DNA of 64,000 bases from an uncultured Alphaproteobacteria bacterium (GCA_944391735.1 CALXUR010000003.1:12287-76286); one strand, 5' to 3'; shown: positions 5,720-55,410, counted from the stretch's first letter. The notes: generated by a model not told the origin, from the letters alone. Program-made: numbers and translations.

Positions 5720-5870
5720 CCATAAACTGTAACGAAAAAAGGGTCAATAAAAAGTTATAAAAACGTATAACATGGGCGCAGATATGAAGTCAAGAAAAAA
5801 ATGAAATAACAAAAAGACTTCCTGTATGTTGAGGAAAATGGGGGATAAGATGAAAAAATGTAAAAATTAA

Positions 5871-7406
5871 ATGACCATTAAATTTTTACAGGAAAGGGAA
5901 ATGGGAATGAGAAAAAAGGACTTGCGTGTTGTAGGGAAGCCTTCGACAGAGGGGCATTATGTGTTACAGGATCCCCGGGTCAAGCCCGAGGATGACACAT
6001 TTATGAAAGAGACCGAGGATGCCCCGTCATCCGAGAGACGAATTTTAGGTGGAATTGGGGGATCCAGAAAGGGTGATGAATCGGGTCGATCGATGGTGGA
6101 AATGCTGGGTGTGTTGGCCATCATGGGATTGTTGGCTATCGGTGGGATTATGGCTTACCGATACGCTGTTACGAAATATCAAGCAAATGAGACGTTTAAT
6201 GAACTGCGCCGCCGGGTGGTAATTCACTCTCAACAGAGTATAACGGGCACGCCTTTATCTCAGGTGGAAATGGGAGAGACAACGCAAATGGGCTATCCGA
6301 TAGCCGTTGCGCGTGTGGACAGCGGCTTTTTTGAGTTAACATTACAAGACATTGACAAGCGTCTGTGTCAAGAAATGGTTCGGACGGGATGGACGTTGCC
6401 GACACAGACGCGTGTGAACGGTATTGTGGTAGGGACGAATCCGGCGGCTTGCGGGGAAGAGAACGTCCTTGTGTTCCGATTCCAGGCGGAAATGGGAGGA
6501 TGTAAAACGGACGCGGATTGTCCTTGCGGAACGTGCGCAAACGGGACGTGTCAGACGAGTTGCAGCAGCGGGGAAAGCTGCGTTAAAAACTTTGATGACG
6601 GGCAATATGTGTGTTGCCCGGGTGGAAAAGTAGTCGGCAACAGTTGTTGTGAACATCCGGGCGAAAACGGCACGTGTTGTGATGAAAATAGCAAATATTG
6701 TTGTCCGCCCGATAAGCCGTTGTATGCACAAGGAAAATGTTATGACTGTGAGGAACAGTTTGTGATATTCGGTGTGGATACAGCCAATACGGAAACACGA
6801 AACAAATATGTGCAAATTTGTAATCGATGTCAAGATCGATGGGTATCGTCATATCATAATTTCAGATGTTATAAGCCGTGTCCTGAAGGAGAGATAATTG
6901 ATTATACAGGAACTTGCCATACCTGTGATGATTCCTCTTTTTTCAGACTTGACGGCACAGATCCGTCATGGTATCTGAGTGCCGAGGAGTGTTTTAAATG
7001 CCCGGGTGTTCGCTTTGCCGGATCGGGAGATTACGGGCAATGGAGTAATTATGGAACAGGATGTTATAATTGCTATGATCCTGAACAATCTGTTGAATTC
7101 GGAACATATGGAACACCCAGTTACACAGGAGGAAGCCGGAAACATCAAAATGCTTGCGACGCCTGTCCCAACAGACGATCGATTAATGATCTTTATTGTG
7201 CCAAATACTGTGAGGATGGAAAAGTATGGGACAATGTCGGGCAATGCCATGCGTGCGATGAAGAGGCAGATTTTAACGTGCAAGGTGTTCCGGAAAACAA
7301 ATGTGCGTGTCCCGGTGTGCGGTATTTGGACGGCAATATGTGTAAAAAATGTCCCGAAGACCTATCCGCTTTAACACCCGAACAGCAGGCACAATGCGGG
7401 GGATAA
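5871..7406 (+). CDS. Prepilin-type (type IV pilin-like) protein with a large Cys-rich C-terminal region. The true start may be an internal Met.
   Basis: Motif ...GDESG|RSMVEMLGVLAIMGLLAIGG: a cleavage-type Gly, Glu at +5, and a hydrophobic helix. The remaining roughly 400 aa hold more than 50 Cys in CxxC/CC patterns. Confidence 0.6.
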   Translation: MTIKFLQEREMGMRKKDLRVVGKPSTEGHYVLQDPRVKPEDDTFMKETEDAPSSERRILGGIGGSRKGDESGRSMVEMLGVLAIMGLLAIGGIMAYRYAVTKYQANETFNELRRRVVIHSQQSITGTPLSQVEMGETTQMGYPIAVARVDSGFFELTLQDIDKRLCQEMVRTGWTLPTQTRVNGIVVGTNPAACGEENVLVFRFQAEMGGCKTDADCPCGTCANGTCQTSCSSGESCVKNFDDGQYVCCPGGKVVGNSCCEHPGENGTCCDENSKYCCPPDKPLYAQGKCYDCEEQFVIFGVDTANTETRNKYVQICNRCQDRWVSSYHNFRCYKPCPEGEIIDYTGTCHTCDDSSFFRLDGTDPSWYLSAEECFKCPGVRFAGSGDYGQWSNYGTGCYNCYDPEQSVEFGTYGTPSYTGGSRKHQNACDACPNRRSINDLYCAKYCEDGKVWDNVGQCHACDEEADFNVQGVPENKCACPGVRYLDGNMCKKCPEDLSALTPEQQAQCGG

Positions 7407-20433: not shown

Positions 20434-21552
20434 ATGGATAAAAAACAAACCGCTAATCTAAGAAATCAATCTTGTCAAAATGAGTCGGGAAAATCGATGG
20501 TTGAAATGTTGGGTGTCTTGGCTTTGATGGGATTATTGGCTATTCTGGGGGCTAAAGGATATAATATGGCGATGGAACGTGTGGCGTCGACCCGGATTTT
20601 GAATGAAGTCAATCGACGCTCCGTTGTTTACGCACAACAGATGATGAGTCATACCGAACTGTCGGAATTGGATTCGTCAGAGATGCCCGAAACAATAGAA
20701 GGCGGATATGCTTTTTCAGCCCGGCCTTTGGATAACGCTTTTTTTACGATTACCGTTGAAAATGTGGAAAAAGAAGTCTGTGCTCACATGGTTGATTTGA
20801 ATATGAAAACGGCGTTACGGCTACGTGTTGACGGGCAGATTTCCACAGGGGACAGTCAGATTTGCCAAAAAAGCAACGGCACGTTGGAATATACATTTTC
20901 TAAATTGTTAACTCCTTGTGAGGATTGTTTGGATAATATAACGACTTGTTCTTCAAACGCAGATTGTGAGGCAAATTATGAGTGTAAAAACGGCGTTTGC
21001 TCTTGTGCAATTCCATGTGGTGAGGCGTGTTGTTCAAGCGGTGAGACATGTGTTAATGGAGCTTGCTCGGTTGTTCAGGGCTGCACCAGTGATTTAGATT
21101 GTGACAACGGTATTTGTTTTTCGGATGGCGTGTGTGGGTGCCGGAGTTGGCGTGATTGCAATGAGGAATCCTATTGCGTCTGGCAAGATAGAACGCATTA
21201 TACTTGCTCCGGACGAGCCGACATTGCCCCAGGCAGTGATACGGGACCCTTCGGATGGATGGCGTCCAGCGTTACCATGCGTCAGGAAACGGCGGCGGAT
21301 TTTTGTGATAAGTATGGCAAATCTGATCCAACGGCTGTTGAGGTTGGTATATCGAATTTAGATGCAAATGGATCAATGACACCACCCGATTTTTTGGCGT
21401 GGCTTGGTCAAGGGAATTATTGGATTCAAGGAACAGATCCTTGGGGAAAAGGGTCGCGAGCTCTTATCTACATACATCCAAATAAAAAAATGAATTGGGG
21501 TAGTTTTAATTTGGGATATTTTTATAATAAAAATTATGCCCTCTGTCATTGA
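20434..21552 (+). CDS. Prepilin-type pilin-like protein with a Cys-rich C-terminal domain, paralog of 5871..7406
   Basis: ...QNESG|KSMVEMLGVLALMGLLAILGAKGY prepilin-like N-terminus. The C-terminal half is dense in Cys (CEDCLDNITTCSSNADCEANYECKNGVCSC...). Confidence 0.6.
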   Translation: MDKKQTANLRNQSCQNESGKSMVEMLGVLALMGLLAILGAKGYNMAMERVASTRILNEVNRRSVVYAQQMMSHTELSELDSSEMPETIEGGYAFSARPLDNAFFTITVENVEKEVCAHMVDLNMKTALRLRVDGQISTGDSQICQKSNGTLEYTFSKLLTPCEDCLDNITTCSSNADCEANYECKNGVCSCAIPCGEACCSSGETCVNGACSVVQGCTSDLDCDNGICFSDGVCGCRSWRDCNEESYCVWQDRTHYTCSGRADIAPGSDTGPFGWMASSVTMRQETAADFCDKYGKSDPTAVEVGISNLDANGSMTPPDFLAWLGQGNYWIQGTDPWGKGSRALIYIHPNKKMNWGSFNLGYFYNKNYALCH

Positions 21553-32483: not shown

Positions 32484-32766
32484 GAGAAGTATTGTGATAG
32501 GTCTGTTCGTTTTGTTGAGTGGTTGCGCAGAGGTGCGACCTTTTGTGGATACTCGTCGGGAAGCCGGGCAGGTGGAGCCGGTGGGACAGTCTCGGCCGGA
32601 GCGTATTGCGGTTTGTTACAACGCTTGGTGGGATGATGATGTTGAAATTTTACGGTTAGCCGAGGCCGAGTGTGCCAAACAAGGAAAACACGCCGTTGCG
32701 GATGGTGTTTCTTATTTTAATTGCCGTCTGGTAACGCCCAGTACCGCTTTTTATAAATGCCAATAA
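32464..32766 (+). CDS. Hypothetical lipoprotein
   Basis: MMKNTIKRSIVIGLFVLLSGC lipobox. About 100 aa. Confidence 0.5.
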   Translation: MMKNTIKRSIVIGLFVLLSGCAEVRPFVDTRREAGQVEPVGQSRPERIAVCYNAWWDDDVEILRLAEAECAKQGKHAVADGVSYFNCRLVTPSTAFYKCQ

Positions 32767-32779
32767 CAGAAGAATCCGT

Positions 32780-33385
32780 TTACGGAAGTGGTATAATCGG
32801 GATACCTTGAAGAGTCAGGTGGCCGTTTCGGGGTTTTAGCAGAAGAGTTTGTGGAGCGTCACTGATAACAAAGTTCAGAAAAGTCATGATTTCCGGCTTG
32901 ATGAACGGGCGAATAAACGACTTTAAGCCGATGGTTTGAGCCGAAAGCTGACCTGTTTCATGTGCGGTATCAATTTCTCCCGAAACATGAAAGGTCAGCA
33001 TATCCAATCGACCCTGCAGAGATCGAATACGAATACTTTTGGAAAACAGATCGGCATCCAACCGTATCGGACTGTCGGACGTTATCGTTGTTAAGGTCAG
33101 GCGTGGTGGCCAAGCCGGCGGAACACGAATATATAAGTCACCCAGTGAAATTGCCTGATGCCCCGACCGATAAAGTGTCAAGCCTTTCAAACGAACGCAG
33201 GCTTGAAACACACAATCCGCACGTGTTGCGCCGTTGGAAGTAATGGCAACCCAAGGCGTATTGAGTGTATCCAGAACGGTGGGGATTCGGTTTATCATCC
33301 TGTATTCCAAAAAACGAAAGGAAGCAAAGATGAAAGAAAAAAGCAAAAGAGAGGCAATTAAGAAGTATTTAACTGATTTTTTCAT
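32780..33385 (-). CDS. Hypothetical membrane-anchored protein
   Basis: ORF with a TM segment (MKKSVKYFLIASLLLFSFIF). The upstream TTG-start extension of the track ORF would overlap the tRNA-Ala promoter, so Met13 is taken as the start. Confidence 0.4.
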   Translation of the reverse strand: MKKSVKYFLIASLLLFSFIFASFRFLEYRMINRIPTVLDTLNTPWVAITSNGATRADCVFQACVRLKGLTLYRSGHQAISLGDLYIRVPPAWPPRLTLTTITSDSPIRLDADLFSKSIRIRSLQGRLDMLTFHVSGEIDTAHETGQLSAQTIGLKSFIRPFIKPEIMTFLNFVISDAPQTLLLKPRNGHLTLQGIPIIPLP

Positions 33386-33414
33386 GAAAGAGAGTATAAA
33401 GTAAAAAAGAGCTC

Positions 33415-33443
33415 TTGACAAGGTGAAAAAAAAAGAGTATAAG
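33415..33443 (+). promoter_or_regulatory. Promoter of tRNA-Ala
   Basis: TTGACA, 17 nt spacer, TATAAG, then 17 nt to the tRNA 5' end. Confidence 0.5.
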
Positions 33444-33460
33444 ATTTCTGTTTTTCTGAT

Positions 33461-33536
<76 letters not shown>

Positions 33537-33542
33537 AATTTA

Positions 33543-33573
33543 AGAGGGTTTGATAAACCCTCTTTTTTATTTT
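33543..33573 (+). terminator. Rho-independent terminator after tRNA-Ala
   Basis: AGAGGGTT-tgat-AAACCCTCT followed by T6. Confidence 0.6.
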
Positions 33574-33657
33574 GGAAGTTAAGCTTTTTTGACAGATCAA
33601 GCTGAAAAGAGATTATTTTTATAAGTCGTTCTATTTAAAATAAAAGATAAAATTTAT

Positions 33658-33686
33658 TTGACTTTGGTATTGAACGAACGTATAAC
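33658..33686 (+). promoter_or_regulatory. Promoter of island gene 33706
   Basis: TTGACT, 17 nt spacer, TATAAC. The same element recurs at 34588-34616. Confidence 0.5.
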
Positions 33687-33705
33687 GGATAAAAAGGGAT
33701 AAGTC

Positions 33706-34158
33706 ATGAAATATATTCTGATTTTAACATTACTGTTGATGAGTGTATCCGCTGGTGCGGTGACAGTTGAGGATATGTCAGAAGCACGAAAGCAAGCAGA
33801 GTTTGAGGCACGTGCGATAGATAAGATTTGTTGGAACGAGGCATTTAAAGATAAGCCGGATACGACAAGAGCTATGTGGGCGGCAGCGGTGCGGAACACA
33901 GACTGCTTATATAAGGAGATAGAAAAACAGGTAAAGCTGGCTTTTTTACCACAGGATCATGAAAAGATGATGGTGTTAATTCATGCAGCCGGTAAAAATA
34001 TAGCGGATATTTACTTTGAGATGCATACCAGTAACCGGTATTGTTACGGGCATTGCGGAACTATGAATAACATCACGCATACGGTGAATGAAATGGAGTT
34101 TTTAATTGGCGTGTTAACAGATTTAATTTTGATGAACAGGATAAAAGACAGTGTATGA
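33706..34158 (+). CDS. Small secreted Cys-containing protein (150 aa), copy 1. Candidate periplasmic immunity protein or lysozyme inhibitor.
   Basis: Signal peptide MKYILILTLLLMSVSAGA. Conserved Cys including CYGHCGTM. Paralogous to 34635..35087. Convergent with a GH108 toxin remnant. Confidence 0.5.
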   Translation: MKYILILTLLLMSVSAGAVTVEDMSEARKQAEFEARAIDKICWNEAFKDKPDTTRAMWAAAVRNTDCLYKEIEKQVKLAFLPQDHEKMMVLIHAAGKNIADIYFEMHTSNRYCYGHCGTMNNITHTVNEMEFLIGVLTDLILMNRIKDSV

Positions 34159-34207
34159 TTATAATAAATATATTTTCGGGAGGGGTTAAACCTCCCGAAT
34201 GAACTAT

Positions 34208-34530
34208 TTACTATTTAATTAAAGATTTTTCAAATCGTTTTTTCCAACCATATCCGAATTTAATTTGATTGGATATGGGTTGTTTTTTTATGTCAGAAAA
34301 ACGTTGTCGGACAATATAATTGTTGACGTCTTTCATTTGTTGAAGAGTTAAATTGTTCAGGGCATTAATAGTTTGAGATCCCATGACACCGTCTTCATCC
34401 ACTTGAAAAGAAGTGAATTGATTAATACCTTGTTGCGCCCATTGGATCGGCTCTGTCAGCGACAACGGCAGGTATTGATTCGCATTAACCGTTAAGGCGG
34501 GTTGCGGAATGGTTGGTTTTGATAGATAAA
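34208..34530 (-). pseudogene. 3' remnant of a GH108/PG_binding_3 toxin gene. Track ORF 34211..34465 covers the C-terminal 84 aa.
   Basis: About 88% DNA identity to the 3' end of 35098..36360. Upstream remnant sequence 34466-34530 (ggtattgattcgcattaaccgttaaggcgggttgcggaatggt) matches an internal part of the full gene near 35943-36010. This indicates an internal deletion. Confidence 0.55.
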
Positions 34531-34587
34531 GCTAAAAAGAAATCGTCTTTATAAACCGGTATATTGAAAATAAAAGATACAAATTAT

Positions 34588-34616
34588 TTGACTTTGATGT
34601 TGAACGAAAGTATAAC
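34588..34616 (+). promoter_or_regulatory. Promoter of island gene 34635, a duplicate of 33658-33686
   Basis: TTGACT, 17 nt spacer, TATAAC. Confidence 0.5.
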
Positions 34617-34634
34617 GGATAAAAAAGGCGAGTC

Positions 34635-35087
34635 ATGAAATATATTCTGATTTTAACATTACTGTTGATGAGTGTATCCGTTGATGCAGCGGAAAAGGAA
34701 GAAGTGTGTGACACGTTGGAATGTGCGAAGGCTCAAGCGCATCACATTGGAAAAACGTGTTGGGATGAGGCGTATAAGGATGATCCGTATTCGACAGCGG
34801 AGATGCGCCGAGCCGATTTTAATGCAAATGATTGCATGTATAAAGCGGTGGAGGAGCAAGTCAGGCAAGCTTTTGAACCGACCGAGCAAGAGCAGGTTTT
34901 AGAATGGATTATGACAGGGTGGCGTGGGGTCAGTCAAACATACTGGATGATTTTTAACAATAATAAATATTGTTACGGTCGTTGTGGAACAATGCAACAT
35001 TTACGAAATACTCCTTTTGAAGCTCAATTTTTAGAGCAGGTTTTGGCTTGGTTAATTCATGCAAATGCAAAGAAAGGGAGTATTTAA
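34635..35087 (+). CDS. Small secreted Cys-containing protein (150 aa), copy 2
   Basis: Same signal peptide as copy 1. CYGRCGTM. Convergent with the intact GH108 toxin gene. Confidence 0.5.
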   Translation: MKYILILTLLLMSVSVDAAEKEEVCDTLECAKAQAHHIGKTCWDEAYKDDPYSTAEMRRADFNANDCMYKAVEEQVRQAFEPTEQEQVLEWIMTGWRGVSQTYWMIFNNNKYCYGRCGTMQHLRNTPFEAQFLEQVLAWLIHANAKKGSI

Positions 35088-35097
35088 CTCCCTTCCT

Positions 35098-36360
35098 TTA
35101 TTTGATAAAGTGACGTTCGCTTCTGGTTGTCAGACCTTTTCGGCGGGTTCCGTATCCGGCTGGGTTTGCGTCAGCGTATTGGTTTATTTGTCCGGAACGT
35201 TGTCGGACAATATAATTGTTGACTTCTTTCATTTGTTGAAGGGTCAAATTATTAAGGGCATTAATGGTTTGTGATCCCATGATGCCGTCTTCATCTACTT
35301 GAAAAGAAGTCAATTGATTAATACCTTGTTGCACCCATTGAATCGGCTCTATCGGAGAATGGTTTGCCAAAAGGTCAAATAAGGTCTTGGCTAACTTTTC
35401 ATTTTTAATTTCTTCAATGCGGTAGGCATCGTAATAATCCATTTTATAAATGGTTGTTGCCTGATCCCTTGTTAAATCCTTAACGGTAGCGGGATATGTT
35501 CTTCCCAAAGTCGGATGGGCCGCTTTAAAACGATTTAATGAACCTTGAATAACACCCATATTGGTCGGTTGATCTATTCTAGTCGGTCTATCTTCATAAC
35601 CGCCCTCTTCCTGATAGACAGATGACAACAGGCGATCAAAACGGGTGGTGGAACCGTAGCCCAAAAGTTCATTCATCTTATCGACCGTCAGGTCATCGGG
35701 GCGCAAAATGCCGGTTCTATCCAAACCGTTATCTCGTTGAAAAGCCGAAATGCCGTCAAACAGTTGTTGGTCGGGATAGGGGGTTATTCCCTCTGACTCC
35801 GGCAGGTAATAGCCCAAGTCGTATAAGGCCTCTTTTGTCGAGATAACGTCTGTGGGAGAGGCGAAAGAGGGGCTGACGGATTGTGTGATAAAAAAGCCCT
35901 GCGCGTCGGTATTGTTATCTGTTAAAAAGTTCGGTTTTATCGGTGGTAACGACGGGTATTGATTTGCATCAACCGTTACGGACGGTTGCGAAATGGTCGG
36001 CTTTTGATAATAATTCGGCGCGGGCAGAGAGTTTAAATCCCGAAAGGCTCGATTTAACAATTTTTCGTTTTCTCGGGCATTTTTTTCGGCACGTTTGCTT
36101 TGGCTTGTTTCTTCCCTATTTTTTTGCTGTGCTTCTTTTTCATCATGGTCTTGTCCGCAGATGCGGTTATAGGGTTTGACATGCTTACCCTTTCGCATAT
36201 GGCCGGGAACGTGAATGAGTTTTTGGCAATGTCCGGATGTGTCGTGTCCTTTGGAACTGAGTTGTCGCTTCGGGATAATTTGTGCCTGTCCCGTGAAAGA
36301 GCTCAGGTTTTGTAATATTTTGGCGATATTGATAAATGCGGTAAGAGATTTTTGATCCAT
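35098..36360 (-). CDS. Polymorphic toxin-like protein: conserved His/Cys-rich N-terminal domain, S/T/P/Q-rich linker, GH108 lysozyme-like domain and PG_binding_3
   Basis: N-terminal GHDTSGHCQKLIHVPGHMRKGKHVKPYNRICGQDHDEKEAQQKN is shared with 38438..38773, 40284..41024 and 36841..37245. The C-terminal half has the EEGGYEDR...DQPTNMGVIQ catalytic block of glycoside hydrolase family 108 and a DEDGIMGSQTINALN PG-binding segment. Start taken as Met18 of the track ORF (RBS AAAGGAAAAGC). Confidence 0.6.
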   Translation of the reverse strand: MDQKSLTAFINIAKILQNLSSFTGQAQIIPKRQLSSKGHDTSGHCQKLIHVPGHMRKGKHVKPYNRICGQDHDEKEAQQKNREETSQSKRAEKNARENEKLLNRAFRDLNSLPAPNYYQKPTISQPSVTVDANQYPSLPPIKPNFLTDNNTDAQGFFITQSVSPSFASPTDVISTKEALYDLGYYLPESEGITPYPDQQLFDGISAFQRDNGLDRTGILRPDDLTVDKMNELLGYGSTTRFDRLLSSVYQEEGGYEDRPTRIDQPTNMGVIQGSLNRFKAAHPTLGRTYPATVKDLTRDQATTIYKMDYYDAYRIEEIKNEKLAKTLFDLLANHSPIEPIQWVQQGINQLTSFQVDEDGIMGSQTINALNNLTLQQMKEVNNYIVRQRSGQINQYADANPAGYGTRRKGLTTRSERHFIK

Positions 36361-36495
36361 GCTTTTCCTTTCAATAAAAAAAGCCCGCCGCAAGAGATTC
36401 CGGACAGGCATAAAAAAATCGGGATATACTTGTCCCGATTAACTAAAAAAAGTATAGCATAAATTAAATGAAAAGTCAAGGAATATTTTCCTATT
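36361..36495. repeat. Conserved 5' leader/promoter element of the toxin genes, copy R1. Other copies: 37261-37388, 38774-38918, 41025-41165.
   Basis: AATAAAAAAGCC(C/T)G(C/T)CG..AGATTCCGGACAGGCATAAAAAAATCGGGATAC recurs immediately upstream of every toxin start codon. R1 and R4 also share AAAAGTCAAGGAATATTTTCCTAT. Confidence 0.6.
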
Positions 36496-36556
36496 TTTGA
36501 TTTGTAAATGACTCCTTTTATATTCGTTGGGAAGAACAACGGGATTAAGAAGAGGG

Positions 36557-36796
36557 CTATTTCGGGTTTACGGGATAGAAACGGCATATTTGTTTTTCTA
36601 TATCCCAAACACCTCGGCCATAGCAAGTGTCTTCATTAACAACGCATTCAGTTCCCCAATCACAGTGCGCAAATATAAATCCCTTGGGACAAATACCACC
36701 CGAGAGACAATCATCCTCCCGTAAATCTATATAAGTCATAAGAGCGACTGTCACTATGGTAAAAACTGTCAAACACATAAAAAAGAAAAACTTCAT
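36557..36796 (-). CDS. Small secreted Cys-rich protein (79 aa, 8 Cys). Candidate immunity protein downstream of the decayed toxin 36841..37245.
   Basis: Signal peptide MKFFFFMCLTVFTIVTVAL. Same strand as the toxin remnant and directly 3' of it. Confidence 0.4.
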   Translation of the reverse strand: MKFFFFMCLTVFTIVTVALMTYIDLREDDCLSGGICPKGFIFAHCDWGTECVVNEDTCYGRGVWDIEKQICRFYPVNPK

Positions 36797-36840
36797 GTTA
36801 AAATGATATCAAGAATTTTTTTTGAAAGCAAGAGTGAAGT

Positions 36841-37245
36841 CTAATATTTCAAAGGTAAGCCTGATGGTCTGAAAATGCCACAGCTTTCACTTAATGTTTT
36901 TCCTTTATTGGCTCCCCGCAATCCGGAAATATTTGCTTTCATGTCAGATAAACTTTCATTAGGACCATATTTAAAAACATCTTTACTTTCTTTTAACAGA
37001 GATAACAGAAGGCCTACTAGGTTACCGTAGACACCCCGTGAACCGGCTTCATAGTTTGCTTTACAGTGAAAGTATTTATCTCCGCCGATAAAATTAGTTT
37101 TATTCATATCATTAAAATTTCGGATGAAATCTTTGAGCGGTGCAAATAGTCCGGTCGTTGTTTTTTCCGCTTGATTTTTTTATTGAGCTTCTTTTTCGTC
37201 GGGTGCTGGCACACCGATTGCATTTCCGATGGGTTCTGTTTCCAT
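36841..37245 (-). pseudogene. Decayed toxin paralog: the N-terminal domain carries an internal in-frame deletion and a CAA-to-TAA nonsense codon (37180-37182). The C-terminal small domain is of unknown function.
   Basis: METEPIGNAIGVPAPDE joins directly to KEAQ(*)KNQAEK, with the central roughly 55 codons missing. The same frame continues into track ORF 36841..37107 (FIGGDKYFHCKANYEAGSRG...). Confidence 0.5.
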
Positions 37246-37478
37246 GATCTTTTTCCTTTCAATAAAAAAGCCCGCCGCAAGAGATTCCGGACAGGCATAA
37301 AAAAATCGGGATACACTTTTATTTTAAAAAACTTGTTTTTTACTTTTGAAATTGATAGAATTGTATAAAGGTTTAAAGAGGATATCTAATGAAATATGTA
37401 TTTGGAATTATTTTGGGATTGTTTTTGGTTTCTTGTCAAACACAAGAACCGGTTCAATTTAAAAATCCGATTTTTTAT
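37195..37478. repeat. Duplicated module of about 285 bp: toxin N-terminus, leader, divergent intergenic region and lipoprotein N-terminus. Second copy at 38725-39008.
   Basis: Near-identical stretches from CGTCG(G/A)GTG..CACCGATTGCATTTCCGATGGGTTCTGTTTCCATGATCTTTTTCC through ...CAATTTAAAAATCCGATTTT. Confidence 0.6.
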
Positions 37479-37772
37479 GAAACACTTTATCCTATTTCCA
37501 AGACGGTTCGGGAGACGCGATTGACACCGACGAAGATATATGTGAATGCATTTATTTCGGAAAAAGAGTGTCGATTGCTAAAGAATACCGAGACCGTTTT
37601 GGAGTTTTCCTGTGAATACGACCATCCGTTCAGCGGGCATTTTTCGGATGTATTTTATCGGTATGTTATTGAAGGGGAGGAATCAAAATATACCAATTGT
37701 TTGATTGTTAGGTTGGAAATGCCCGGTGGAACAGCCTGGTTTTGTATTCACCGAGAAAAACCACAGGATTAA
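37389..37772 (+). CDS. Lipoprotein (127 aa), island-associated. Candidate immunity protein.
   Basis: MKYVFGIILGLFLVSCQTQEPVQFKNPIF lipobox. The N-terminal 30 aa are identical to 38919..39389. Convergent with the lysozyme-like toxin domain gene. Confidence 0.55.
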   Translation: MKYVFGIILGLFLVSCQTQEPVQFKNPIFYETLYPISKTVRETRLTPTKIYVNAFISEKECRLLKNTETVLEFSCEYDHPFSGHFSDVFYRYVIEGEESKYTNCLIVRLEMPGGTAWFCIHREKPQD

Positions 37773-37829
37773 GAATGTGATCGTTGCATATCGACTATTT
37801 GACTACTCGGCTGAAGATATATAGTGCAA

Positions 37830-38773
37830 CTATTTGTTTCTATATTTACAAGGAGAATAAAACCATCCATTGATTAATGGAATTTCCCGTAAAGTATTTC
37901 TGGCCCAATCATTGCGGGTTTTTCCGACCTGATATCTATTTACCTCGTTAATCATTTGAAAAACATTTTTTTTGTTAACGCCCTCAAAGAAAAAATGCCA
38001 TTTTTCAGAATTAAAATTGTGCCCCATATTATATTGCATGTCTAATAAAACCATTTGTAGCGTTCTGGGATATGTTTCAAATGCCGGAAATTTTGATTCT
38101 AATTCAGCTAAGTCATTTCCCAAATGTTCCATTGTTTTATCAATAATTGTGTGTTCGGATAGAGTTAGTTCTTGGGAATGATTTGTTACACGGAAGTCTT
38201 CTGAAGTATAATTTTTTCCAAATATTTTCTGTTTTTGAAAATCCAAGAGTCGTTTATATTCGCCTAGTTTTTGCTCGGTTGTAGCCTCTTTTCCTTGATA
38301 CATCCAGGGGAGTGATATAAAGGTTTTTTGATTCGGAATATATAACCCGCTGGCGGCTGTTATCTTTCCCAATGTATCCAAATAGGCATAATTGATTGAT
38401 CCTTCATGTTTTTTTAGATATGGCCAGTATGCTTGAATTAATTCATCATATTTTCGTTGTTTTTTTTAGATACAGTTTCTTTTTGAGAAAGTGTTTCTTT
38501 GTTAACTTTTTCCGCTTGGTTTTCTTGTTGAGCTTCTTTTTCGTCATGGTCACGGCCACAGGTGCGGTTATAGGCGTTGACGGGTTTGCCTTCGCGGCTA
38601 TGAGCGGGAACATGTATCATTTTTTGACAATGCCCCGATGTGTCGTGTCCGTTTTGAGAATTATCGCTGTTTCCGAACAGAAAAGCGAATAGATTTTGTC
38701 GGTTATTATTGACTTGGTTGTTTTCGTCGAGTGTCGGTACACCGATTGCATTTCCGATGGGTTCTGTTTCCAT
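37830..38773 (-). pseudogene. Toxin paralog split by a frameshift at a T8/A8 homopolymer: N-terminal conserved domain (38438..38773) and T4-lysozyme-like C-terminal domain (37830..38381)
   Basis: The N-domain ORF stops 20 codons after the A8 run. The downstream ORF frame is open from immediately after the run. Inserting one A fuses them. The C-terminal domain has LLDMQYNMG...NRYQVGKTRNDWARNTL, resembling the phage/T4 lysozyme (GH24) C-terminal lobe. Confidence 0.55.
38460..38467. repeat. T8 homopolymer (A8 on the coding strand) at the frameshift site
   Basis: gttg-TTTTTTTT-agat. A +1 slippage restores a roughly 310-aa open reading frame. Confidence 0.6.
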
Positions 38774-38918
38774 GATCTTTTTCCCTTCAATAAAAAAAAG
38801 CCTGCCGCAAGAGATTCCGGACAGGCATAAAAAAATCGGGATACACTTTTATTTTAAAAAACTTGTTTTTTACTTTTGAAATTGATAGAATTGTATAAAG
38901 GTTTAAAGAGGATATCTA

Positions 38919-39389
38919 ATGAAATATGTATTTGGAATTATTTTGGGATTGTTTTTGGTTTCTTGTCAAACACAAGAACCGGTTCAATTTAAAAATCCGA
39001 TTTTTAATAAAAAACTAGAAGCTATTTCCAAAATTCTTAATGATGTAAAAATAACTCCGACAGAAATTATAGATCTAAAGGATCCGGAGGTATTACCGGC
39101 AACGTGTGAGTTATTGTCCGATGAAGGATATCGTATTATTATGAAGTGTGTGCAGCCCTATCGAACAATACCGGTGCAAACGGTGTATTACCGTTTTACA
39201 AATATGGGAAAATATGAACCATTCTATTCGTCAGAAAAAAATCTGTGTGAAATTCATCAGGAGCAATGTGATGATATGGATTTTCAAAATTTTTACTCTT
39301 GGGGTGTTTTTGTCGTTCGATTAAACGATGGGGAGGATTGTGGTCCTCAGATGCCTGAAGACCAACTCCCCGAATGGTTGATCAGGTAA
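38919..39389 (+). CDS. Lipoprotein (156 aa), island-associated. Candidate immunity protein.
   Basis: Lipobox LVSC. The C-terminal roughly 90 aa (ATCELLSDEGYRIIMKCVQPYRTIPVQTVYYRFTNMGKYEPFYSSEKNLCEIHQEQCDDMDFQNFYSWGVFVVRLNDGEDCGPQ) are identical to 39445..39912. Confidence 0.55.
   Translation: MKYVFGIILGLFLVSCQTQEPVQFKNPIFNKKLEAISKILNDVKITPTEIIDLKDPEVLPATCELLSDEGYRIIMKCVQPYRTIPVQTVYYRFTNMGKYEPFYSSEKNLCEIHQEQCDDMDFQNFYSWGVFVVRLNDGEDCGPQMPEDQLPEWLIR
39081..39350. repeat. 270-bp direct repeat at near-100% identity. Second copy at 39610-39879.
   Basis: Identical from GATCCGGAGGTATTACCGGCAACGTGTGAG through GAGGATTGTGGTCCTCAG. It encodes the shared C-terminal part of the two lipoproteins. Confidence 0.6.
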
Positions 39390-39444
39390 ATGTTATCTTC
39401 TATTTTATGATTGAGGTAATTATATAAAGTTTTAAAGAGAGTAT

Positions 39445-39912
39445 TTGATGAAGCATGTGTTCGGGGTTATTTTGAGTGTGTTCTTGGTTGCTTGTCAAAC
39501 GCAAGAAGCGGTTCAATTTAAAAACCCGGTTTTTAATAGAAAGTTGGCATCAAATGTGAGTATGGATTACGATATTGTGATAACGCCGAGAATCATGGTC
39601 ACTTTAAATGATCCGGAGGTATTACCGGCAACGTGTGAGTTATTGTCCGATGAAGGATATCGTATTATTATGAAGTGTGTGCAGCCCTATCGAACAATAC
39701 CGGTGCAAACGGTGTATTACCGTTTTACAAATATGGGAAAATATGAACCATTCTATTCGTCAGAAAAAAATCTGTGTGAAATTCATCAGGAGCAATGTGA
39801 TGATATGGATTTTCAAAATTTTTACTCTTGGGGTGTTTTTGTCGTTCGATTAAACGATGGGGAGGATTGTGGTCCTCAGGCACCTAAGGACCAACTTCCC
39901 GAATGGTTTTGA
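39445..39912 (+). CDS. Lipoprotein (155 aa), tandem paralog of 38919..39389 with a divergent N-terminal third
   Basis: MMKHVFGVILSVFLVACQTQEAVQFKNPVF lipobox. The C-terminus is identical to the upstream paralog. Confidence 0.55.
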   Translation: MMKHVFGVILSVFLVACQTQEAVQFKNPVFNRKLASNVSMDYDIVITPRIMVTLNDPEVLPATCELLSDEGYRIIMKCVQPYRTIPVQTVYYRFTNMGKYEPFYSSEKNLCEIHQEQCDDMDFQNFYSWGVFVVRLNDGEDCGPQAPKDQLPEWF

Positions 39913-39936
39913 TTATACTATTTTTATTTTTTTGTT

Positions 39937-40251
39937 TTAAAGAGTAAAAGCTAAATATATATTCAACCCGATAAAATACAAAAGCGGATAACTTAATATT
40001 ATAACGGATTGCCACGGTTGTTGGTGATGACGCAGTCGTGCATACCATAAACAAAGGATAATCAGTATTGCTTCGGTTAAGTTGACTACAGTATAGTTAA
40101 GGGGATGATGATACATCCAACCTAAATTATCCGCTTGCCAGGGTATTTCCGGATTGGCAATATCTTGGAAACACCCGATAAAGAGAAAGCCTGTCAGAAA
40201 GATATTAAAAGCGGCAAGTAAAAAAAATAGAATGCGTTGAATATATTTCAT
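39937..40251 (-). CDS. Small polytopic membrane protein (104 aa). Candidate immunity protein directly downstream of the Tlde1-like toxin.
   Basis: Three predicted TM segments. Same strand as 40284..41024, 32 nt downstream. Confidence 0.45.
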   Translation of the reverse strand: MKYIQRILFFLLAAFNIFLTGFLFIGCFQDIANPEIPWQADNLGWMYHHPLNYTVVNLTEAILIILCLWYARLRHHQQPWQSVIILSYPLLYFIGLNIYLAFTL

Positions 40252-40283
40252 AATATTAATACTATCATCTTTTAAAAAAATGT

Positions 40284-41024
40284 CTAGTATTTAACTTGAA
40301 CAATAACATCATATCCATTATTTTGAAACCATTTTGCAAAATCAGCCATTGCCTTTGTTAGATCAATACATCCGGCAGAACCTGGCGTTAAGCCTCCATG
40401 AATAGAAAAATTATTTCTTCCATATAGATTAGTATCATTCGCTGGTGTTAACCAAATGCGTTGTTCTCCCCATGCAGCTGTTCCACCTCTCCACTGTCCG
40501 CCACCTATTGAAGACTTAAATTTTTGCCATGCTCCCAAATTTTCCCACTTTTGAAAATCGCTGATTTTTGCAACATAATTGTCTTCGGGAAGTGGACCAT
40601 AATTTTTTAAATCCTGATAATTTGGATGTTGAAAGCCCGGTCGTCCGGATACACCTTTCCATTCCTTAATAATTTCTCCATTTTCGTGCAGGGTAAGACT
40701 TTTACCATTAAAAGATAAATACTGCCCATTTTTTAGGTTTAATGGAGTATTCCATTGTGTATATGGATTATTTTTTTGTTGAGCCTCTTTTTCGTCGTGG
40801 TTACGGCCGCAGATGCGTTCATAGGCGTTGACGGGTTTGCCTTCGCGGCTATGAGCGGGAACATGTATCATTTTTTGACAATGCCCCGATGTGTCGTGTC
40901 CGTTTTGAGAATTGTCGCTGTTTCCGAACAGAAAAGCGAATAGATTTTGTTGACTGTTATTTCTCGGATTGTTTTCGTCGGGTGCTGGCACACCGATTGC
41001 ATTTCCGATGGATTGTGTTTCCAT
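40284..41024 (-). CDS. Polymorphic toxin-like protein: conserved His/Cys-rich N-terminal domain and Tlde1/DUF2778-like (YkuD L,D-transpeptidase-fold) C-terminal domain
   Basis: N-terminus METQSIGNAIGVPAPDENN...NGHDTSGHCQKMIHVPAHSREGKPVNAYERICGRNHDEKEAQQKN. C-terminus has ...GRPGFQHPNYQDLKNYGPLPEDNYV and FSIHGGLTPGSAGCIDL (His...SxGC catalytic motif of the YkuD/Tlde1 family). Confidence 0.6.
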   Translation of the reverse strand: METQSIGNAIGVPAPDENNPRNNSQQNLFAFLFGNSDNSQNGHDTSGHCQKMIHVPAHSREGKPVNAYERICGRNHDEKEAQQKNNPYTQWNTPLNLKNGQYLSFNGKSLTLHENGEIIKEWKGVSGRPGFQHPNYQDLKNYGPLPEDNYVAKISDFQKWENLGAWQKFKSSIGGGQWRGGTAAWGEQRIWLTPANDTNLYGRNNFSIHGGLTPGSAGCIDLTKAMADFAKWFQNNGYDVIVQVKY

Positions 41025-41242
41025 GGTCTTTTTCCTTTCAATAAAAAAGCCTGTCGGATCAGATTCCGAACAGGCATTAAAAAAATCGGGATACATTTAT
41101 CCCGATTAACTGAAAGATATCATATCATAAATCAGATTAAAAGTCAAGGAATATTTTCCTATAAATAGAAATATTTTCTTTATTGACTTTTGTCGGGAGG
41201 CGTGAAATACTGAACGAAAGTTGACGATGAAAGGAGAAGGTT

Positions 41243-54747: not shown

Positions 54748-55410
54748 ATGACGGATATAATGCATAAAAGTATTTCACAAGATGAATCCGGAAGAACGTT
54801 GACGGAACTTTTGGTTGTTTTGGTCCTTATGGGATTTTTATCTTTAGCCTTTATTCGCGGATATGTGTGGGCTATGGATATGTATCACGCCAGTGAAACA
54901 ATGAATGAAATGGAAGTTCGGGCGACGACGTTGGCGACTTTGTATGGTCGGGAAGGTTGGCCCGCTGTGGGAACGGATGTTACGCTTGAAGAATTCGGCA
55001 ATGTAACGAATCATGGTTATCCGATTAAGATGACAACCTATAATGACGGTATGTTTGTGTTTGCCGTTTCGGATGTGCCGGTTAAAGTTTGCGAAAAGAT
55101 TTTGCGAGATTGGCGCATGGTTGAATGGTTGATGGTGGATGAAAACAGTGATGATCCGATCGGACCTGAACCCGGGGGAATCGGTAGTGAAGATAACTAC
55201 TATGATTTTTCAAATCCCAATCACGACCTGTGTTCCAGGTTTGCAAAGGCCGATGAAGAGAATAATGGTCAGCCGACCGTAAAAATGTATTTCTGGTTTC
55301 ATAGGGAATTAGACCTGTGTCAGGGCGATAACTGCGGCACGACGCCGGGTGGAGACGAACCCGATCAAGAGGATCAAGGGGGCACCGAAGGCGACGGAGG
55401 AACCGTATAA
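54748..55410 (+). CDS. Prepilin-type pilin-like protein (220 aa), third paralog
   Basis: ...QDESG|RTLTELLVVLVLMGFLSLAFIRGY prepilin-like N-terminus. Acidic Gly-rich C-terminus. Confidence 0.55.
   Translation: MTDIMHKSISQDESGRTLTELLVVLVLMGFLSLAFIRGYVWAMDMYHASETMNEMEVRATTLATLYGREGWPAVGTDVTLEEFGNVTNHGYPIKMTTYNDGMFVFAVSDVPVKVCEKILRDWRMVEWLMVDENSDDPIGPEPGGIGSEDNYYDFSNPNHDLCSRFAKADEENNGQPTVKMYFWFHRELDLCQGDNCGTTPGGDEPDQEDQGGTEGDGGTV

Follow-up and report, generated by a model that had tools for sequence, protein, structure and literature searches.

Modular type IVb-class pilin-like proteins with arginine at +1, likely pilus-displayed adhesins, in uncultured gut Alphaproteobacteria

Introduction

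The guts of humans and ruminants commonly harbor a lineage of uncultured Alphaproteobacteria whose attachment and interactions are almost undescribed. A stretch of 64,000 nucleotides from one such bacterium (GCA_944391735.1, CALXUR010000003.1:12287-76286; hereafter the window, with positions counted from its first letter) carries an open reading frame (ORF), gene 1, whose product begins like a type IV prepilin and ends in a long cysteine-rich region, together with two paralogs, genes 2 and 3. Are these proteins pilins, with their unusual basic residue at the first mature position, and what would such extensions do on a pilus? Our analysis indicates that the products of the three genes are likely pilin-module proteins of the type IVb class, that they are members of a lineage-specific family, and that they would be displayed on pili as interchangeable adhesins by the mechanism proposed below.

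Results

Three genes of the window share a prepilin-like motif

An earlier sequence-only reading of the window had reported three plus-strand ORFs with a shared motif. Their coordinates are as claimed, and a six-frame motif scan of the 64-kb window returned exactly these three sites, with the Gly codons at 6084, 20488, and 54790. The common pattern is ESG/(R/K)(S/T)(M/L)xE(M/L)L, where the slash marks the predicted cleavage site, and the cleavage contexts read GDESG/RSMVEMLGVLAIMGLLAIGG in gene 1, QNESG/KSMVEMLGVLALMGLLAILG in gene 2, and QDESG/RTLTELLVVLVLMGFLSLAF in gene 3. All three proteins have the features of a class III signal peptide, i.e., a hydrophilic leader ending in Gly at −1, the R/K-S/T-M/L-x-E string with Glu at +5, and a hydrophobic helix of ~20 residues. 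Together, the family genes make up ~5% of the window sequence.

Codon-level conservation of the junction was analyzed in related genomes, which supplied 105 non-identical members of the family. Gly at −1 and Glu at +5 are present in all 105, Arg at +1 in 99, and Glu at −3 in 92, so that the conservation of the ESG(R/K) motif in homologs, named beforehand as a check on the prepilin proposal, was borne out; Arg at +1 was also found in 110 of 110 further motif matches in additional loci that come almost wholly from metagenome contigs. The constant residues are written with varied codons (all four Gly codons at −1, five Arg codons at +1, and both the AGY and the TCN families for Ser at +2), indicating that conservation acts on the protein and not on the DNA. 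Among the three window genes, neither DNA-level conservation nor a shared promoter was found; their upstream regions are unrelated and their motif codons differ synonymously, which indicates that the leader is translated and that the G/R junction is under functional constraint. Across the family the leader ranges from 7 to >100 aa while the motif stays constant.

The N-terminal module resembles type IVb pilins

A family profile covering the first ~157 alignment positions (A2) gave 16 matches in the PDB, every one of them a type IV pilin, pseudopilin, or geopilin (best E 6e-5). In this alignment, S-M-V-E of the family falls on T-L-I-E of mature pilins, a register that makes Arg residue +1 and Glu residue +5. 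The AlphaFold2 model of gene 1 (pLDDT 83.5) consists of a disordered leader, a 52-residue helix, and a beta-sheet head, and its top 14 PDB matches in Foldseek are all pilins; the gene 2 model agrees on the pilin fold (CofA 10.5, TcpA 9.0). As modeled, the proteins adopt the lollipop fold, a ~50-residue alpha1 packed on an antiparallel beta-sheet, and a fold closest to those of CofA, TcpA, and PilS is strongly supported. The head contains a conserved Cys pair; all sequences have C103, and at least 90% have C131. The proposal of a type IV prepilin-like protein with an unusual +1 residue therefore stands, as the PDB profile matches are solely pilins and pseudopilins and as the module is homologous to the pilin of a type IVb cluster described below.

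Standard signatures do not recognize this module. Pfam and NCBIfam searches with the three window proteins returned solely sub-threshold matches to N_methyl, TIGR02532, and GspH. Gene 3 came closest, with 16.6 bits for N_methyl (cut-off 21.2) and 15.8 for TIGR02532 (cut-off 16.3); in the search with these two signatures gene 1 scored 11.4 and gene 2 gave nothing, and N_methyl matches of 22 of the 33 relatives were sub-threshold only. PilS (PF08805) and Bundlin (PF05307) had no match among the window proteins, and one of the 33 relatives matched PilS with E 0.046.

A pilin with the identical motif lies in a type IVb pilus cluster

Five related gut contigs (L137, L151, L158, L168, and L169) carry a pilin of 208–219 aa with the signal NEQ(T/S)G/RSMVEMLGVLAIIGVLS, which shares the identical motif G/RSMVEMLG with the window family. 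This short pilin passes the Pfam thresholds for PilS (57.1 bits, E 2.6e-15) and Bundlin (44.4 bits, E 2.6e-11). Profile A2 aligned to it in hhalign with 99.6% probability (E 1.4e-23) from alpha1 into the head, indicating that the window proteins, although without a PilS or Bundlin match of their own, are diverged relatives. This conserved cluster looks complete and comprises a TcpQ-domain protein, a secretin, PAP_PilO, a coiled-coil protein of ~480–510 aa, a T2SSE (BfpD-like) ATPase of 554–560 aa, a T2SSF platform protein, a bundlin-like protein of 197 aa, the pilin itself, and a PilT-like T2SSE ATPase of 320–332 aa. Its assembly ATPase (P0300), to which JGI gives the name ‘bfpD’, is 82–96% conserved among the top 120 matches, is named in ‘Proteobacteria bacterium CAG:495’ and in Alphaproteobacteria metagenome-assembled genomes (MAGs), and is recorded on >1000 contigs, with lengths of up to 1.95 Mb.

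Machinery genes were searched in 80 GTDB loci and then in 168 loci in total (~1.87 Mb, biased to pilin neighborhoods), using motif regular expressions for T2SSE and for A24 peptidases (GxGDxK-type) and jackhmmer with GspC/D/E/F/G/L/M/O of Escherichia coli. In the 80 MAG loci the PilT-like ATPase was the only machinery found, and the full cluster was seen on metagenome contigs only. On MAG contigs L063 and L068, modular members have within a few kb a PilT-like ATPase that is 54–56% identical to its in-cluster counterpart. This ATPase is 63–96% conserved across the lineage and usually stands alone, next to rimP-nusA-infB or to other housekeeping genes; in NCBIfam it scores as a divergent PilT/ComGA/GspE superfamily member, below all curated cut-offs. 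The lone copies carry a variable Pro-rich or repeat N-terminal extension, and the orthologue inside the type IVb cluster is found on L137 and L168.

Several other genes adjoin the cluster or family members. Directly upstream of the cluster on L168 and L169 are two TrbC-family (type IV secretion pilin) genes and a gene for a 1212-aa protein (L168:1-2786), and an 819-aa VirB4-like ORF lies near a family member at L062:14089-16545; conjugation-type systems seem common in these genomes. On both contig types, ~1.3–1.7 kb downstream of the cluster and past two opposite-strand genes, there is a conserved trio of a VWA-like protein, a PP2C phosphatase, and a Ser/Thr kinase with a C-terminal membrane region (L137:13556-16441 and L168:16562-19444), which may have a regulatory role.

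C-terminal modules are disulfide-rich or lectin-like

Past the pilin module, ~300 aa follow in gene 1 and ~215 aa in gene 2. Cys-packed C-termini of 300–400 aa had been proposed for both, which agrees with gene 1 and not with gene 2, whose last ~110 aa are lectin-like; the count of more than 50 Cys in gene 1 was too high, the actual number being 40. Genes 1, 2, and 3 encode 40, 25, and 4 Cys (40, 24, and 4 after the predicted cleavage), and gene 1 has four CC, nine CxxC, and two CxC patterns. Its C-terminus begins with a conserved CC-rich stalk and continues with ~47-aa units of six Cys each, with the consensus GxCYxC-x14-CxxCxNR-x6-CxLxCPxGxF, of which relatives hold up to ~20, with up to 94 Cys in total.

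No Pfam or PDB relative of the gene 1 Cys repeat rose above threshold, and the profile of the ~47-aa repeat found nothing significant in the PDB (best E 0.42). Pfam searches with eight Cys-rich relatives gave sub-threshold matches to Furin-like (E 0.008), Ephrin_rec_like (E 0.012), and NCD3G (26.8 bits, cut-off 38.9). Such furin-like, ephrin-receptor-like, and NCD3G repeats share with gene 1 a disulfide-rich beta-hairpin architecture; however, no curated threshold of a eukaryote-type Cys-rich repeat is reached and the window protein has no match at all, so that the likeness is one of resemblance only. By the Pfam and PDB profile searches, which gave no structural relative, the six-Cys repeat appears to be a new extracellular module.

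Even Cys numbers prevail, in 81 of the 91 mature members that are complete (p = 6e-15), indicating that the Cys are probably all paired in disulfides outside the cytoplasm. A gene with a DsbA domain (Pfam DSBA) is present on the related contig L087. A reading of the CxxC pairs as zinc ribbons is disfavored by the even counts, by the extracytoplasmic location, and by multiples of four occurring at chance level (41/91).

In gene 2, the last ~110 aa have a C-type lectin-like fold and show the characteristics of a C-type lectin-like domain (CTLD), including the WxxAxxxC...C pattern. Gene 3, of which identical copies are found on 7 public contigs, consists of the pilin module and an acidic Gly-rich tail. 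Thus, genes 1 and 2 have a modular architecture in the sense of PMC8179133, i.e., pilin plus repeats and pilin plus linker plus lectin-like domain, and gene 3 has no added module.

The claim that this is not a described family holds in part. Neither the Cys repeat nor the motif has a match in Pfam, NCBIfam, the PDB, or the literature, where we found no match to the motif string and nothing relevant on pili of RF32 or CAG-495 Alphaproteobacteria. The general class is known, as modular pilins have already been described (PMC8179133) and so have large type IVb minor pilins (PMC10191384).

The family is large and dispersed among gut Alphaproteobacteria

A first protein search with gene 1 returned 228 homologues, mostly unnamed or hypothetical proteins of ‘Alphaproteobacteria bacterium’ MAGs, with a few named type II secretion system protein or PulG. 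GTDB species representatives hold at least 594 pattern matches and at least 579 confirmed loci; the best 80 of these loci belong to uncultured Alphaproteobacteria MAGs from human, ruminant, or other gut, except for one bin labelled Lactobacillales. Metagenomes contributed at least 491 confirmed stretches, and phmmer, run exhaustively against 1.84 billion cluster representatives (50% identity), gave 4176 matches at E <= 1e-3, 700 of them at E <= 1e-10. Among the loci retained, tandem arrays of up to four family genes occur, and the MAG SIG53 alone has at least 18 copies. By these searches, the family is very large and multigene, and it appears specific to a lineage of uncultured gut and rumen Alphaproteobacteria.

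Coordinates and gene starts

The features of the window and the lone PilT-like ATPases of related contigs are collected in Table 1. The family genes of the window have rplQ/parC, ssb/gyrA, and rpsA as neighbors, and a ribosomal protein operon lies at the left end of the window.

Table 1. Positions of the family genes, their parts, and other loci (window coordinates unless a contig is named)
Feature	Position	Strand	Description and basis
Gene 1, modular pilin	5871..7406	+	511 aa (longest ORF); ORF list
Gene 1, predicted prepilin cleavage site G(-1)/R(+1)-S-M-V-E(+5)	6084..6101	+	motif scan, PDB register, codon conservation
Gene 1, pilin module	6087..6485	+	~52-residue alpha1, then beta-sheet head with conserved Cys pair
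Gene 1, Cys-rich region	6495..7403	+	38 Cys; consensus, repeat extraction and alignment
Inverted repeat	5859-5873 / 5876-5890		15-nt arms, 2-nt gap, 93% complementary; repeat search
Gene 2, modular pilin	20434..21552	+	372 aa
Gene 2, predicted cleavage G/K	20488-20493	+	19-aa leader
Gene 2, pilin module	to ~20901	+	
Gene 2, Cys-rich linker	to ~21220	+	
Gene 2, C-type lectin-like domain	21223..21549	+	C-terminal
Gene 3, short divergent member	54748..55410	+	220 aa; motif scan; sub-threshold TIGR02532 / N_methyl
Gene 3, predicted cleavage G/RTLTELL	54790	+	motif scan
Lone PilT-like ATPase	L063:14867-16198		
Lone PilT-like ATPase	L068:16431-18311		
Lone PilT-like ATPase	L085:10001-11233		
Lone PilT-like ATPase	L087:10001-11443		
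Island, duplicated small secreted/lipoprotein gene pair	33706-34158 / 34635-35087		
Island, duplicated small secreted/lipoprotein gene pair	38919-39389 / 39445-39912		
Island, muramidase-like gene	35098-36411	-	GH108 and PG_binding_1
Island, protein with Tlde1 domain	40284-41096	-	L,D-transpeptidase-type toxin domain

Gene 1 has three candidate starts, at 5871, 5901, and 6003. Public gene calls, including that of ENA, start at 5901 (MGMRKK, 501 aa; identical to protein P0001) and give a leader of 62 aa, and the alternative ATG at 6003 would give one of 28 aa; the ATG at 5871 lies inside a 15-nt inverted repeat, which argues against it as the true start. The arms of this repeat are TGTAAAAATTAAATG and CATTAAATTTTTACA, overlapping the first ATG of the gene (5859-5890), and the repeat may be an operator. 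Shufflon-like inverted repeats were not found around gene 1 in the repeat search. The annotated leader of gene 1 also contains a GC-rich palindrome, GGGTCAAGCCCGAGGATGAC (5977-5996), of which the window has a single copy.

Annotated leaders of up to ~125 aa are seen in the homologues P0003, P0009, P0014, P0039, and P0098. The peptide strings FPRKRESR, VTGSPIGSGMT, RILGGIGESRK, and RVKPEDD recur in long leaders and look like translated intergenic palindromic repeats, inserted after a conserved MGMR(G/K)K start and ahead of ESG/R. Either the real starts of these homologues lie downstream, or repeat elements are tolerated in a leader that is discarded.

Discussion

A proposed mechanism of display

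We consider it likely that the proteins of this family act as interchangeable adhesins on a pilus. The prepilins would be inserted in the inner membrane via Sec with the N-terminus in, and a prepilin peptidase would cleave between Gly and Arg. Alpha1 would then dock the protein into a pilus core made of the short major pilin, so that the bulky C-terminal module is exposed on the surface of the pilus or at its tip, like TcpB, CofB, and PilV of R64. With a constant handle and variable heads, the paralogues could offer interchangeable binding specificities, whether the target is a glycan, mucus, a host cell, or another microbe, and their repertoire may correspond to a hard-wired version of the R64 PilV shufflon. 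By analogy with characterized modular pilins, an adhesin role of the family is plausible.

Comparison with known pili

The cluster of this lineage resembles that of the R64 thin pilus (IncI1, type IVb), with a TcpQ/PilL-like protein, a secretin, PilO, an ATPase, a platform protein, and a PilS-type pilin. R64 swaps the C-termini of PilV by DNA inversion in its shufflon, joining alternative C-terminal adhesin domains to a constant pilin module. PilV and the window family are alike in this combination of a constant N-terminal pilin module with alternative C-terminal binding domains. In contrast to R64, the window variants are separate full-length chromosomal genes, with no inverted-repeat switch seen around gene 1, and their modules are unrelated six-Cys or C-type lectin-like domains on a pilin module with Arg at +1; moreover, a PilT-like ATPase is part of the lineage cluster, and no PilU-type peptidase is linked to it.

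The systems of TcpB (TCP of Vibrio cholerae) and CofB (CFA/III of enterotoxigenic E. coli) each have a single large modular minor pilin, encoded in the operon, and CofB is described as a type IVb minor pilin that forms a trimer at the tip (PMC10191384). The window family differs from them in occurring in dozens per genome and outside the operon, in the fold of its modules, and in its extreme Cys content. The bundle-forming pilus (Bfp) of enteropathogenic E. coli (BfpA bundlin, BfpD, BfpE, BfpB, and BfpF) is matched by the lineage cluster in the Bundlin hits of the in-cluster pilin and its neighbor, in the ATPase named ‘bfpD’, and in a second, PilT-like ATPase corresponding to BfpF; unlike Bfp, the cluster has PilO/TcpQ-type accessories, shows no BfpP-type peptidase, and is accompanied by a large modular pilin family.

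A precedent for adhesins is provided by the modular pilins PilB (vWA) and PilC (lectin) of Streptococcus sanguinis (PMC8179133), which belong to a type IVa-like system of a monoderm and carry the canonical IPR012902 motif. Failing the N_methyl and TIGR02532 thresholds, the window family would probably be missed by the InterPro-based census of PMC8179133, and censuses of modular pilins that rely on standard pilin signatures under-count it.

Evidence against pilus display and alternative explanations

Several observations weigh against pilus display. The window and ~10 kb of flank hold no pilus machinery genes; the family genes are dispersed among housekeeping genes, apart from pilus genes; and the contigs with the cluster (GC 47%) are not tied to the genome of the window. 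N_methyl (PF07963) and TIGR02532 remain below threshold for all three window proteins, and some annotated leaders are very long (62 aa in gene 1 from 5901). No A24 peptidase turned up in the window, in either copy of the type IVb cluster searched together with 10 kb on each side, or in ~1.87 Mb of DNA from related loci, a pilin-biased sample that by a rough estimate amounts to one genome-equivalent, so that its absence is not established. The sequence-only reading implied a pilus system and a prepilin peptidase in the genome; what our search recovered is pilus machinery in the lineage, as the type IVb cluster of related contigs, and no A24 peptidase in the ~1.9 Mb sampled, which answers this in part. 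Finally, we know of no characterized pilin with Arg at +1. Type IVb pilins already vary at this position (Met, Leu, Trp), which makes Arg less shocking in this class, if still unprecedented as far as we know.

Some of these points would suit a signal anchor, in which the pilin-like N-terminus stays uncleaved and only tethers disulfide-rich ectodomains to the inner membrane or periplasm. No A24 was detected in the lineage DNA searched or beside the pilus cluster, the family genes of the window are unlinked to pilus genes, and Arg immediately ahead of the hydrophobic stretch would be a flank that suits the positive-inside rule (PMC10191384). However, a plain anchor has no need of the invariant Gly at −1 and Glu at +5, which are linked to cleavage and filament assembly, and it does not account for the identical motif on a pilin within a type IVb cluster. 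Leaders that vary from 7 to >100 aa before a constant motif are as expected of a leader that is discarded, and there would be little point in confining an adhesin-type lectin domain to the periplasm. We therefore regard anchoring without processing as unlikely.

The same module could instead hand the proteins to a type IVb or T2SS-like machine as pseudopilin-like substrates, to be released as soluble effectors, an option that the sequence-only reading had raised. Type IVb systems do secrete, TcpF and CofJ being tip-associated or secreted effectors (PMC10191384), and the large, disulfide-rich C-terminal modules look stable enough for such a fate; but a cargo that bears a full pilin head is without precedent, which leaves a secreted role rather improbable. 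Still harder to uphold is the idea that each paralogue forms a homopolymeric filament of its own, giving antigenically different pili. All paralogues keep a complete alpha1 and head, and the copy number is high, yet a type IV filament is unlikely to accommodate modules of 200–900 additional residues along its length, the natural major subunit is the in-cluster pilin of 208–219 aa, and modular pilins are expected at the tip (PMC8179133). We give this last alternative very little credence. Display of the modules on a type IVb pilus remains the reading we prefer.

Distinctive features and implications

Features that appear to set this system apart are Arg at +1 throughout, the new six-Cys module, the fusion of a pilin to a C-type lectin-like domain, and the large, dispersed repertoire of paralogues. 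They may point to a distinct type IVb subtype in which every subunit, including the major pilin, has Arg at +1 and maturation perhaps relies on something other than a linked canonical A24 peptidase; in addition, dozens of scattered modular pilin genes would form a combinatorial set of tip adhesins, possibly expressed variably, that serves life in the animal gut. We put this forward as a tentative idea that is more likely wrong than right. If pilus display is correct, the disulfide-rich and lectin-like heads borne on pilins, hundreds to thousands of them, would be the main candidate adhesin repertoire of the lineage. The nearly invariant Arg at +1 would be a natural test of what a prepilin peptidase and a filament core tolerate.

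Other loci

A second kind of pilin-like protein is encoded in a MAG from water-buffalo rectum (L026:1140-4546, minus strand). It has 542 aa, starts with MTRRTDKQNEKG/ALIVEVIAVIALLG, with Gly and then Glu at +5 and without Arg, is preceded by a 591-aa protein with an N-terminal transmembrane helix, and gave no family match.

Within the window, positions 32700-41100 form a possible small island beside a tRNA-Ala gene (33461-33536). With its duplicated small gene pairs, a muramidase-like gene, and a Tlde1-domain protein (Table 1), it could be a toxin/immunity or cell-wall-attack cassette.

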